From a virus: a DNA stretch of 34,543 bases. The notes below the pieces were generated by a model. It did no database searches, had not been told where the DNA came from, and worked only from the letters and a program-made list of their open reading frames with translations. Where the stretch lies: the UHGV virus genome UHGV-0068935. One strand, 5' to 3'. Positions 31,400-34,543 of this stretch are shown here, in pieces (position 1 is the first letter of the stretch; each line of letters starts with the position of its first letter). A program made the position numbers and the translations under genes.

Positions 31400-31995
31400 G
31401 GACGAAACGCCCCACGTAATCCCCACGTAAAACGTCGCGTAACGCCACGTAACGAAGAGATAACCCCGCCAGCCCGATTCGATCCCCTGACATCGGAAAA
31501 CGATTTCTGCGCCCCAAAATCGCCGCAAATGGCCGGAAATTTTCGGGGGCGACGTAACGCGTAAAGTGACGTAATCGGCGCTACCCCGCACACGCCTCCG
31601 GTATTTGTGTACGATAAATTTTGCAAATCGAAAGGGGTGCAAAACACCCCGCCAGGGCGCGCCATTACTGAGGTTTTCCCTTCTGAATGGTTTTGCACTT
31701 TGTGCAAGGTTTTGCAAAAGTGTGCAAAAACTCCGGCTTTCTGAGGATCCCGAAAAATTTTAATGCACTGAATAACAAGAGATTTTTAAAATTACGTCAC
31801 GATCGAAGATCTGAAAAAGGATCCGGCGACGAAAACGAAAAAATCAGGAAAGCCAGAACTGGCGCGGCCTGGCGGGGAGTGGCAGCAAAAATCACTTTTG
31901 CACACTTTTGCACAACTGCTCCGAAAAAGGATGGCGAAGGGGAAGGAAAAACAGCCACGTCATCCGTTGCACGTAACGGACGTAAAAGGTAAATT
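31400..31995. repeat. Repeat-rich non-coding region: phased CGTAA repeats, TTTGCAC/GTGCAAA repeats, GATC cluster
   Basis: At least 9 CGTAA copies in phased groups (10-12 bp spacing at 31414..31453), tandem CTTTTGCACA x2 at 31895..31914, palindrome GGGGTGCAAAACACCCC at 31634..31650, five GATC sites in 31481..31824; no convincing ORF. Confidence 0.45.
31967..31995 (+). promoter_or_regulatory. Putative promoter of hok copy 1 (TTGCAC-N17-TAAATT)
   Basis: Sigma70-like hexamers just upstream of the start of the duplicated hok unit. Confidence 0.3.
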
Positions 31996-32147
31996 ACGCG
32001 CGGGTGCCTTTCGGCTGACGGCTGGAAGGATTACCTGAAGGCCGGATGTGGAAAGGCCCCGAGTCAAACATTTGTTTAACCCGAGGCCCTGACCATCTAC
32101 CTCGCAAGTGGAAGGTTAGCGCCTCCCTGTAAAAGGAGTCAAGCGCT

Positions 32148-32288
32148 ATGCCGCAAAAAACGATCATAGTGAGCATTTTATGCATAACTATTTTGATGAT
32201 TGTCTGGATGATACACAAGTCACCGTGTGAGTTCAGGCTTAACATCATGTGGTCACAATTTGCGGCGTTCTTGCAGTGTAAACAGTAA
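32148..32288 (+). CDS. hok: Hok/Gef-family type I toxin (46 aa, HokA-like)
   Basis: MPQKTIIVSILCITILMIVWMIHKSPCEFRLNIMWSQFAAFLQCKQ matches my memory of HokA (MPQKYRLLSLIVICFTLLFFTWMIRDSLCELHIKQESYELAAFLACKLKE): shared MPQK, TM helix, SxCE and AAFLxCK; AAAAGGAG RBS. Confidence 0.8.
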   Translation: MPQKTIIVSILCITILMIVWMIHKSPCEFRLNIMWSQFAAFLQCKQ

Positions 32289-32378
32289 GAAACCGCAGCG
32301 GGGGTGAAAGCCCCCGCTATCCGGTTGCCGGGTTCGGTCGATATGGCACCCTTTCTCCGTTGGATTACAGACGTATTT

Positions 32379-32401
32379 GCCCGCAATATGCGGGCTTTTT
32401 T
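32379..32401 (+). terminator. Intrinsic terminator of hok copy 1
   Basis: GCCCGCAATATGCGGGC hairpin followed by TTTTTT. Confidence 0.6.
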
Positions 32402-32403
32402 GT

Positions 32404-32607
32404 TCAGTTGTATTTATTGTGGTCGTTACTGGCAGTGGTATTAACTGATTTTGCATGAATAGCACAAATTTTTTCCACGATAACACCACACGCTTCAAGA
32501 TCTTCCGGGCGTGAAACCTTTATTTTTGTAACCGTCTCAGGATTATCAGCCGTTCCACTTTGCACAACCTCAATTTCAATTTTTTTTCTTGAAAGAATCA
32601 TTTTCAT
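32404..32607 (-). CDS. Possible small ORF (67 aa) between the hok copies
   Basis: AT-rich ORF from the track, weak RBS; no recognised motif. Confidence 0.2.
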   Translation of the reverse strand: MKMILSRKKIEIEVVQSGTADNPETVTKIKVSRPEDLEACGVIVEKICAIHAKSVNTTASNDHNKYN

Positions 32608-32686
32608 CGCCCCGACACAGGACAGAGTAAGCCTGTGCGAAAGAATATCACCAGTGCGATAGCGTTGTCTGCTTCAACGCCAGGCA

Positions 32687-32715
32687 TTGCGCACACAAAG
32701 GGAAATCAGTACATT
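32687..32715 (+). promoter_or_regulatory. Putative promoter of hok copy 2 (TTGCGC-N17-TACATT)
   Basis: Same architecture and position as the copy 1 promoter. Confidence 0.3.
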
Positions 32716-32870
32716 ACACGCGGGTGCCTTTCGGCTGATGGCTGGAAGGATTACCTGAAGGCCGGATGTGGAAAGGCCCCGAGTCAACTTAAATGTTAAC
32801 CCGAGGCCCTAACACTTCCTACCGTGACAAGTGGAAGGTTAGCGCCTCCCTGTAAAAGGAGTCAAGCGCT

Positions 32871-33011
32871 ATGCCGCAAAAAACGATCATCGTGAGCATT
32901 TTATGCTTAACCATGTTGTTGACCGTCTGGATGATACACCGTTCTCCGTGTGAGTTCAGACTTAACATCATGTGGTCAGAATTTGCGGCGTTCTTGCAGT
33001 GTAAACCGTAA
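32871..33011 (+). CDS. hok: Hok/Gef-family type I toxin (46 aa), second copy
   Basis: MPQKTIIVSILCLTMLLTVWMIHRSPCEFRLNIMWSEFAAFLQCKP; same RBS and frame as copy 1. Confidence 0.8.
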   Translation: MPQKTIIVSILCLTMLLTVWMIHRSPCEFRLNIMWSEFAAFLQCKP

Positions 33012-33101
33012 GAAACCGCAGCGGGGGTGAAAGCCCCCGCTATCCGGTTGCCGGGTTCGGTCGATATGGCACCCTTTCTCCGTTGAATTACATAGACATT
33101 T

Positions 33102-33134
33102 GCCCGCGATATGCGGGCTATATTTTTATTTTTT
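33102..33134 (+). terminator. Intrinsic terminator of hok copy 2, abutting the stop of the convergent 398-aa gene
   Basis: GCCCGCGATATGCGGGC hairpin followed by T-rich tract. Confidence 0.55.
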
Positions 33135-34322
33135 GAATAGGTTAATAAATTCAGGTTTTTTCTTATCTCCTGCTTCCCTTCGTTTAACCCAACAACACCC
33201 TGACTGAAGTAAACAGACAAATTCATCCTGCTTCAGCTCTAAGGTGTCTTTAAGTTTTAATTGTTTTTTCGCAGCATCAGGAACAAAAACATCAACAATA
33301 ATCTTTCCGGGGTCATACAGTTGAGTTTCAATCAGCACAGGTAATTTATGGACAGGTCTGGGTTCCATACGAGAAAAAGAAAACTCACCATCCATCACAC
33401 CATCAAAAGTACTTACAGAATCGTAACCAGAAAAGCACTCATATTTCACCTGAAGAACAACAGCATCATCAAGCTTTAAAAAATCGCAATAAGAATCATA
33501 CGCCAGGCGATCACTATAAAAAACATCACCGCGATTAAACTGAAAGGAATCCCCTTGCGTCCAAATTTCATAATTAAAAAACTCTGTTTTTACTGGGGTA
33601 AGTTTTATATCCAAAGAATCCTTGTAACACTCTTTTACAGCAAAGCGCCAACCAGCTGCGTAACCATCAACAAATACCGCAATCAACGCATTACTACGGC
33701 GAAACTCCCTTACAGTACGGATAGAAAGCGAGAACTCATCTATCATACTCTTGTAAGTGTTAACATCCTTCTCAAGCGATTTACTGATATCATTCTCAAC
33801 CACGCAGTCTTGCTCAAGAGGAATTTCACCAGTATCAATAAAATTGATAAATTGTTCTTCTGTCAGAATAATTACGCCATAATCGCTGGCTTTCTGAACT
33901 TTCCGCCACCCTTTGTTCTTTCCTACACAAAGGAAAAACAAACTTTTTCCAACATCAGACTTAACATCAATACCATTTTCTTTTGCAAGAGCACTTAAGC
34001 GAGATTTATCAGACTGGTCAAATCCGGTAAAACAAATTGAAATTGAATTCTTTTTGGGTGAAGATTTTCGGGGGGGGGGGGCAATATACTGACTGAAATC
34101 AGTTTCAGACGCAACCTTATTCAACTCCTGGTCGCTAGAAAACATCTGAATAACACGGTCTTTCAAAAAGGTACGAAATGCGCGACGAGTTAAAGAGAAT
34201 CCTTGTAAATAATCCCCTTTTTCAGCCACCTTTATCACGCATTGAGCCGACAACTCCCCTCTACCGTTAACATACAGAAAAAACGCCTCTTTATTTTCGT
34301 TTATCATTTCCCTATCAAACAT
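33126..34322 (-). CDS. Cargo protein with WYL-like N-terminal motif, Pro-rich linker, BRCT-like domain and uncharacterised C-terminal domain (398 aa)
   Basis: Residues about 93-165 (ICFTGFDQSDKSRLSALAKENGIDVKSDVGKSLFFLCVGKNKGWRKVQKASDYGVIILTEEQFINFI) follow the BRCT pattern of the NAD-ligase C-terminus; residues about 37-58 (DYLQGFSLTRRAFRTFLKDRVI) resemble the WYL signature; markedly AT-rich; GGGGG SD-like element upstream. Confidence 0.6.
   Translation of the reverse strand: MFDREMINENKEAFFLYVNGRGELSAQCVIKVAEKGDYLQGFSLTRRAFRTFLKDRVIQMFSSDQELNKVASETDFSQYIAPPPRKSSPKKNSISICFTGFDQSDKSRLSALAKENGIDVKSDVGKSLFFLCVGKNKGWRKVQKASDYGVIILTEEQFINFIDTGEIPLEQDCVVENDISKSLEKDVNTYKSMIDEFSLSIRTVREFRRSNALIAVFVDGYAAGWRFAVKECYKDSLDIKLTPVKTEFFNYEIWTQGDSFQFNRGDVFYSDRLAYDSYCDFLKLDDAVVLQVKYECFSGYDSVSTFDGVMDGEFSFSRMEPRPVHKLPVLIETQLYDPGKIIVDVFVPDAAKKQLKLKDTLELKQDEFVCLLQSGCCWVKRREAGDKKKPEFINLFKK
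34070..34081. repeat. Homopolymeric G tract (about 12 nt; C12 on coding strand) inside the 398-aa gene
   Basis: Run of G in the sequence; the ORF track reads it in frame as Ala-Pro-Pro-Pro-Arg. My hand count of the printed text gave 11 G, but the track translation requires 12, so exact length is uncertain by 1. Confidence 0.75.
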
Positions 34323-34357
34323 AGGACCCCCGTATCAGGCTTAACATTTTGTATATG

Positions 34358-34385
34358 CTTAGCCCGCGAATCATTACGGGCTAAG
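34358..34385. promoter_or_regulatory. Perfect 9-bp inverted repeat (CTTAGCCCG-N10-CGGGCTAAG) upstream of the 398-aa gene
   Basis: Located 36-63 bp upstream of the start codon on the minus strand; operator-like geometry. Confidence 0.3.
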
Positions 34386-34400
34386 ATGTATCGCTATGGC

Positions 34401-34414
34401 AAAATGTGGACAAC
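34401..34414. repeat. Putative Int arm-type site AAAATGTGGACAAC, right copy
   Basis: Near-identical to 476..489; lies 46 bp inside the proposed attR core. Confidence 0.3.
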
Positions 34415-34459
34415 GAGAAAAATAATCCTTTATTTTTCATTGCATTACATCAATTTTCG

Positions 34460-34476
34460 CGCCACCCGAAGGTGGC
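34460..34476. repeat. attR: Putative attR core (CGCCACCCGAAGGTGGC), right copy of 17-bp direct repeat
   Basis: Identical to 362..378; here forms a terminator-like hairpin (CGCCACC-CGAA-GGTGGCG) followed by a T-rich tract. Confidence 0.45.
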
Positions 34477-34543
34477 GTGCTTTTATTATTACTTATCCCT
34501 GTCTAACCAGTCGCCGCTTTCAATTAGCTTTAATCCATCGACG

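Follow-up and report, generated by a model that had tools for sequence, protein, structure and literature searches.

In Neisseria, Haemophilus, Campylobacter and Bordetella, poly-G/C tracts of about 8–15 nucleotides (nt) lie inside open reading frames (ORFs), vary in length among close relatives and switch genes ON or OFF according to the frame (PMC5084427, PMC1891110). A similar run, G12 on the plus strand and C12 on the coding strand, lies in the last gene of a P2/HP1-like prophage, within UHGV virus genome UHGV-0068935; the whole stretch of 34,543 nt that was analysed is called here the window. This cargo gene encodes a protein with a WYL-like N-terminal domain (N-domain), a BRCT domain and a C-terminal domain (C-domain), and the tract falls in the linker between the first two. 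Each of the four genera possesses dozens of such loci with documented switching, whereas the tract described here is limited to a single allele family of a single prophage gene.

Few simple-repeat contingency loci are usually credited to E. coli, whose classic phase switches rely on invertases or Dam methylation. The nearest E. coli precedent is neuO, the 'mobile contingency locus' of the K1 prophage CUS-3. It is likewise prophage-borne, with a slipping repeat inside the ORF; the full-length protein arises only at frame-keeping repeat numbers, and in-frame variants alter a variable peptide segment (PMC3046976, citing Deszo et al. 2005). Its repeat has a 7-nt unit in 2–93 copies right after the start codon, in contrast to the mononucleotide run in an internal linker described here (PMC3046976). 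Because of this internal position, OFF alleles of the cargo gene still encode the folded N-domain, unlike those of neuO. Capsule O-acetylation and switching are experimentally shown for neuO (PMC3046976).

Homopolymers in horizontally acquired genes, as here, also occur in two kinds of anti-phage gene, type III mod (PMC3152355) and pglX/brxX of Pgl/BREX (PMC6326788), where they are thought to mix expressing and non-expressing cells in a population. These genes have a known methyltransferase activity; for the cargo protein, a defence role is suggested by its domains and its place at a prophage end. As for the protein architecture, a survey of WYL proteins describes WYL-BRCT fusions in which an N-terminal WYL-like β domain precedes BRCT, in mobile-element or defence contexts, as in our case (PMC4012209). 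The window protein differs from them in falling below Pfam WYL and in having an extra C-domain of 200 residues.

A literature search found no description of this gene or of its tract. We consider it probable that the tract is a hypermutable mononucleotide repeat, acting as a slipped-strand ON/OFF switch for the prophage cargo gene. Found in twelve lengths over about 800 public contigs, it would be a second prophage-borne repeat switch of E. coli beside neuO, here a mononucleotide one.

The tract and its coding consequences

The plus strand has exactly 12 consecutive G at 34070–34081, in the context ...TTTTC GGGGGGGGGGGG CAATATAC... The coding strand reads GCC CCC CCC CCC CGA across the run, i.e. 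Ala81-Pro82-Pro83-Pro84-Arg85. An earlier annotation made from the letters of the window, hereafter the sequence-only reading, had claimed about 12 G at this place, between the N-domain and BRCT, with a doubt of one base in its count. Coordinates and count both prove right, 12 being the length that keeps the frame; the tract also lies between the two domains, inside a stretch of residues 80–91 where the predicted local distance difference test score (pLDDT) is below 50. The same reading expected truncation after about 84 residues upon a change of one base. There are indeed 84 native residues, but 15–26 out-of-frame residues are added to them and the products end at 99–110 residues.

The window holds a single G12 match, where 100 dinucleotide-preserving shuffles would lead one to expect 0.01, and the next-longest run of G or C in these 34.5 kb is of 6. 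The G+C content of the gene is 38%, versus 56% for the rest of the prophage; with so low a content, the gene's own composition predicts about 2e-5 runs of at least 12.

In-silico translation of tract lengths n = 7–17 yields 396–400 residues with 1–5 prolines when n is a multiple of three (3k), and 99–110 residues otherwise; the respective stop codons are listed in Table 1. In out-of-frame alleles, the N-terminal β domain is the only folded part still predicted from the gene's own ATG. Predicted full-length translation is thereby turned on and off by the repeat in silico, and the predicted products are found in public annotations. In 3k+1 alleles, an alternative-frame TTG opens a further ORF (MRLKLISVSILPPP...), which passes through the tract into BRCT and the C-domain. 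NCBI annotates it as a 'BRCT domain-containing protein' of 328 or 329 residues.

Tract lengths in related prophages

Only 2 of 5,426 complete E. coli genomes have the gene, one with C15 (399 residues), the other with C12 followed by A in place of G. Three IMG/VR contigs have C10 and a 5.3-Mb contig has C13. The INPHARED phage collection gave no DNA match to the gene; flank-anchored pattern scans gave none in genome contigs (one genome per species) or in metagenome contigs. Extra loci were reached through the exact window protein and neighbouring window proteins, the second Hok protein being too widespread as an anchor.

Seven lengths were seen directly in the DNA of near-identical genes: C8, C9, C10, C11, C12, C13 and C15. 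The tract is uninterrupted in 27 of 27 related sequences read. The haplotype of the window gene, defined by zero single-nucleotide polymorphisms (SNPs) over 1185 nt, carries C9 (L032), C11 (L028), C13 (L034) and C15 (L033), and C12 at 13 loci, window included; over positions 32100–34478, loci of this haplotype are identical to the window except at the tract. A uniform length in reads and relatives had been named by the sequence-only reading as an observation that would speak against it, and we find five lengths on one zero-SNP haplotype. Conversely, C10 occurs on 4 haplotypes, C12 on 3, and C13 and C15 on at least 2 each. As a haplotype can have several lengths and a length several haplotypes, the site changes recurrently, far faster than base substitutions accumulate. 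Repeat number that differs among close relatives, with recurrent changes, is what is looked for in a contingency locus.

For a census, the product of each tract length was built and looked up by exact sequence in public contigs, with some entries coming from cluster members. In-frame tracts were recovered as C6 (1 contig), C9 (24), C12 (66, of which 19 with the window's exact protein), C15 (11) and C18 (1); out-of-frame tracts as C7 (22), C8 (55), C10 (240), C11 (244), C13 (78), C14 (42) and C16 (3). This makes about 103 of 787 contigs in frame, with a mode at C10–C11. Both frame states are widespread, and the ON allele of the window is in the minority. Of the two possibilities raised at the outset, ON/OFF switching and variation in linker length, each has its alleles in public sequences: truncating ones from C7 to C16 for the former, and in-frame ones with 1–5 prolines, from C6 to C18, for the latter. 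A single C10 product accounts for 155 contigs and a single C11 product for 173; classes as big as these indicate that the length calls are reproducible, not noise. An apparent surplus of 3k+1 over 3k+2 alleles vanished once N-fragment products were counted.

Among 25 loci we found 15 substitutions, 12 of them synonymous. Downstream of the tract there are 11 synonymous and 1 nonsynonymous, against 21% synonymous expected (binomial P ~2e-6 for an assumed synonymous fraction of 0.25, 8e-5 for 0.35), in a small sample that leaves out the cluster's protein-level variants V345I, Y231H, S104P and E318D. OFF alleles show no second disabling lesion. This substitution pattern favours a downstream frame kept under selection over plain pseudogenisation.

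The probable switch and its alternatives

The tract is best read as a lineage-specific, slippage-prone switch of the contingency type. In replication, the G12/C12 run would misalign, and bases would be gained or lost. Lengths of 6, 9, 12, 15 or 18 would keep the frame and give the full WYL-like/BRCT/C-domain protein, with 1–5 prolines in its linker. At 3k+1 or 3k+2, the frame would shift past residue 84 and soon meet the TGA or the TAA, respectively, leaving from the gene's own start an N-domain fragment alone, with BRCT and C-domain OFF. The C12 of the window would be an ON allele, and later slips could restore the frame of an OFF one within a strain. The switch may be adaptive, perhaps because it curbs the burden of a cargo protein that is toxic or of defence type. 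Since the linker is disordered and unconserved, in-frame length changes should be tolerated, and would be near-neutral alterations.

Should the switching prove real, it would show that the cargo brought in by temperate phages can be inherently stochastic in its expression, and the locus would offer a natural ON/OFF allelic series for probing the role of the WYL-like/BRCT family. It would also follow that automated annotation mislabels one locus in three ways: as a 'BRCT domain-containing protein' of 305–330 residues, as a 'hypothetical protein' of 100–109 residues, and as a contig end.

Several points weigh against the switch. About 13% of the resolved contigs, which are not independent isolates and for which the marker was a full-length protein, an N-fragment or the TTG ORF depending on the class, are in frame; in-frame lengths are not enriched, which also fits gene loss. 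Coding regions of E. coli generally avoid simple repeats (PMC3315296). In some 70 homologous loci, drawn from the genome and IMG/VR collections, the longest G/C run does not exceed 6, so the tract cannot be called a conserved regulatory feature. Homopolymers this long are error-prone on all platforms, and a share of the ±1 calls may be mistaken. Further contigs, in the hundreds, break off at the tract and yield 'partial' proteins that end at residues 71–80 or begin 5–30 codons past the run (46, 74, 39 and 36 contigs, for example). Such breaks show that the site is hard to sequence, and the caution voiced earlier about sequencing or assembly error was justified; they probably censor long tracts in the census. 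In addition, in-frame classes are spread over more haplotypes and undercounted, because full-length proteins had to match over 398 residues and N-fragments over about 108. With this undercount and the probable censoring, we claim neither enrichment nor depletion of in-frame lengths.

The same counts suit neutral decay, in which a mutational hotspot of recent origin is inactivating cargo that can be dispensed with, OFF alleles being pseudogenes of young age: out-of-frame lengths make up about 87% of resolved contigs, with the mode at C10–C11, the tract is lineage-specific, and some same-site sister prophages lack the gene entirely. We nevertheless find decay unlikely, given the excess of synonymous changes downstream and the OFF alleles free of a second lesion. 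In-frame C9, C12 and C15 recur on several haplotypes, and the tract stays long and uninterrupted in every sequence read; recognisable defence-gene pseudogenes are moreover reported to be rare in P2-like hotspots (PMC13586616). Another explanation would reduce the spread to homopolymer miscalls around one or very few true lengths. It can appeal to the many contigs that end at the tract, and to several long-contig records from projects of unchecked sequencing platform, but differences of 3–6 bases (C9, C12, C15, C18) are atypical of miscalls and single lengths are repeated in 150–240 contigs from many projects. C12 comes from 10 different samples, three metagenome assemblies among them, and the chromosomes of the complete-genome collection differ, C12 versus C15. 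An artefact of sequencing or assembly is thus very improbable.

It could also be that the site leaks, so that out-of-frame alleles still yield BRCT and C-domain and the tract adjusts their dose or divides the protein in two instead of turning it off. This could come about through +1/+2 slippage of the ribosome on CCC-CG, through slippage of the RNA polymerase on the run or through initiation at the TTG. Runs of proline codons stall ribosomes; in 3k+1 alleles an ORF of 327–330 residues, with GGAG 10 nt upstream, runs through the tract, and purifying selection persists downstream though most alleles are OFF. The run ends in CCC-CG, a tRNA-Pro +1/+2 shift motif with up to ~1% in E. coli (PMC4519876). 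On the other side, a programmed site would have a fixed out-of-frame length, which is not the case here; in-frame alleles are frequent, no stimulatory structure came to light, though none was looked for, and the expected efficiencies are low. We hold leaky recoding for scarcely probable and give it the least weight of all. A conserved programmed frameshift or transcriptional-slippage site was rejected as such: CCC-CG is present, but the length is unfixed, in-frame alleles occur commonly and the run is missing from homologues.

A three-state device in place of a plain ON/OFF switch, where tract length sets dose or uncouples a regulatory domain from an effector, seems to us rather improbable. 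Frame 0 would give a fused sensor-effector (WYL-like domain, BRCT and C-domain); 3k+1 would give a free N-domain and an N-terminally truncated BRCT/C-domain protein, through the TTG or +1 slippage on CCC-C; 3k+2 would give the N-domain alone, or traces of full-length protein by +2 slippage. Such a device would account for purifying selection downstream although most natural alleles are nominally OFF.

Origin of the tract, protein family and prophage setting

Homologues of 35–58% identity occur in E. coli, Salmonella, Enterobacter, Pectobacterium, Yersinia, Serratia and Aeromonas, and the linker, variable in length and sequence, is their least conserved part. None of 24 homologues has Pro-Pro-Pro at this spot, and P0003 alone has it elsewhere, in a longer insert; a conserved poly-proline requirement, shared by 0 of 24, is ruled out. 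The closest paralogue (58% identity) is likewise placed between ytfP and hok, in prophages both P2-like and HP1-like, and reads ATT CCT CCC AAG at the homologous site, with a longest run of 6. Together with the homologous loci that lack a long run, this CCTCCC points to a recent gain by one E. coli allele family, in which a Pro-Pro seed plausibly grew into the tract. An interrupted tract in homologues, proposed by the sequence-only reading as a mark of stable coding sequence, is found as CCTCCC, or the tract is absent, in distant relatives (at most 58% identity) but not in close ones, and it marks recent gain, not stability.

Several distant homologues have a shorter slippery run at the equivalent spot: an A8 run of lysine codons in or just past the linker, at about nt 220–335 of the coding sequence (L063, L066–L068, L088, L089, L102, L104 and L108).

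Table 1 Features of the cargo gene and its flank in the window
Feature	Coordinates	Strand	Remarks
Cargo gene, 398 residues, last of the prophage	33126..34322	-	WYL-like N-domain, linker, BRCT, helix, C-terminal β domain
N-terminal β domain, WYL/SH3-like, residues 13–61	34140..34286	-	pLDDT ~80–87
Disordered inter-domain linker with tract, residues 80–91	34050..34085	-	pLDDT <50; family alignment columns 80–110
Homopolymeric tract G12/C12	34070..34081	-	Last 2 nt of codon 81, codons 82–84 (Pro-Pro-Pro), first nt of codon 85
BRCT domain, residues 91–165	33828..34052	-	Pfam, family profile and fold searches
C-terminal β-rich domain, residues 205–394	33141..33710	-	Family-conserved
TGA stop for 3k+1 (C7, C10, C13, C16)	34018..34020	-	Products of 99–102 residues
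TAA stop for 3k+2 (C8, C11, C14)	33995..33997	-	Products of 107–110 residues
Alternative-frame TTG	34112..34114	-	3k+1 alleles: opens ORF of 327–330 residues, GGAG 10 nt upstream
5' flank of gene to prophage end	34323..34478	-	Kept in relatives without the gene; homology limits 34288 and 34478

The cargo protein is matched over its full length by phrog_36782 (3e-74). Pfam PF00533 (BRCT) recognises residues 91–160 with 35.4 bits, above its cut-off of 21.3, and both the family profile and fold searches give the BRCT domains of RFC1 and LigA as nearest relatives. In the AlphaFold model, the β domain (13–61) is followed by the Pro-Pro-Pro linker (80–91), BRCT (95–165), a long helix and a C-terminal β domain; the latter, of about 200 residues, has no structural neighbour in the PDB. 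The 'WYL-like' label is tentative. Pfam WYL (PF13280) matches 6 of 25 family members (best E 1e-4) and a single Foldseek match links the protein to PafBC (9fnd_Y, E 4.5e-3, aligned region not reported), but the window protein itself has no match to Pfam WYL at E <= 1.

Two further identities were rejected. Membership of PADLOC PDC-S48 comes down to a common BRCT, as just residues 71–163 align to profile positions 313–406 of 411. LigA reaches 30.3 bits against an NCBIfam cut-off of 444, and the match covers the C-terminal BRCT of the model alone; phrog_2561 owes its PHROG label 'DNA ligase' to this BRCT as well.

The family is built of modules. In many IMG/VR contigs (L077–L113) the encoded protein consists of just an N-domain and BRCT (~160 residues, phrog_2561), and its gene frequently closes the contig; relatives of the C-domain also occur alone (L085, L114, L121–L124, L127 and L129). 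At codon 42 (34196–34198), which belongs to a conserved N-domain motif, QG[YF]S, the window has Phe (TTC), whereas Tyr is the majority residue both in E. coli alleles and across the family.

By its PHROG and Pfam matches, the window is a P2/HP1-like prophage, with integrase, replication nickase, portal, terminase, major head protein, tape measure, baseplate J, Tail_P2_I, tail fibre, HP1_ORF34 and a 557-residue baseplate protein. Past the tail genes come two hok/gef modules, the BRCT gene, then chromosomal ytfP and tamB. Homology to the same prophage end adjoining rpoD ceases at ~34478, so the BRCT gene is the last prophage gene, transcribed inward from the prophage end. Anti-phage genes tend to occur in the variable cargo slot at the ends of P2/HP1-like prophages. 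Position and domains suggest a defence role for the cargo protein.

The 5' flank of the gene contains a perfect 9-base-pair (bp) inverted repeat, CTTAGCCCG..CGGGCTAAG (34358–34385, minus strand), 36–63 nt upstream of the ATG, and its folding beats that of shuffled sequences (z = -2.9). The repeat may serve as operator, as attenuator or as a hairpin that stabilises. A promoter scan upstream of the ATG, on the strand of the gene, found no sigma-70-like site. Sister prophages at ytfP without the BRCT gene (L027, L036, L049, L050) retain its first 35 nt and the whole upstream region, and ~280 bp of unrelated sequence stand in for the remainder. This replacement behind a conserved 5' flank looks like cassette swapping.

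The same right end, i.e. the 557-residue baseplate gene and hok modules, adjoins ytfP, rpoD, serS or flk in relatives (L013, L019, L021, L024, L035, L044 and L047). One genome has two copies, with the BRCT gene present at ytfP and absent at serS. The tandem hok/gef modules (Hok/Sok-type) of the window, at 31989–32404 and 32709–33127, are 92–96% identical and ~720 bp apart; relatives have 1–3 copies (one in L042 and L046, three in L035). Upstream of the first hok ORF, at 32091–32092, the window has G where 7 of 7 aligned relatives have AC, a 1-nt deletion plus a substitution.
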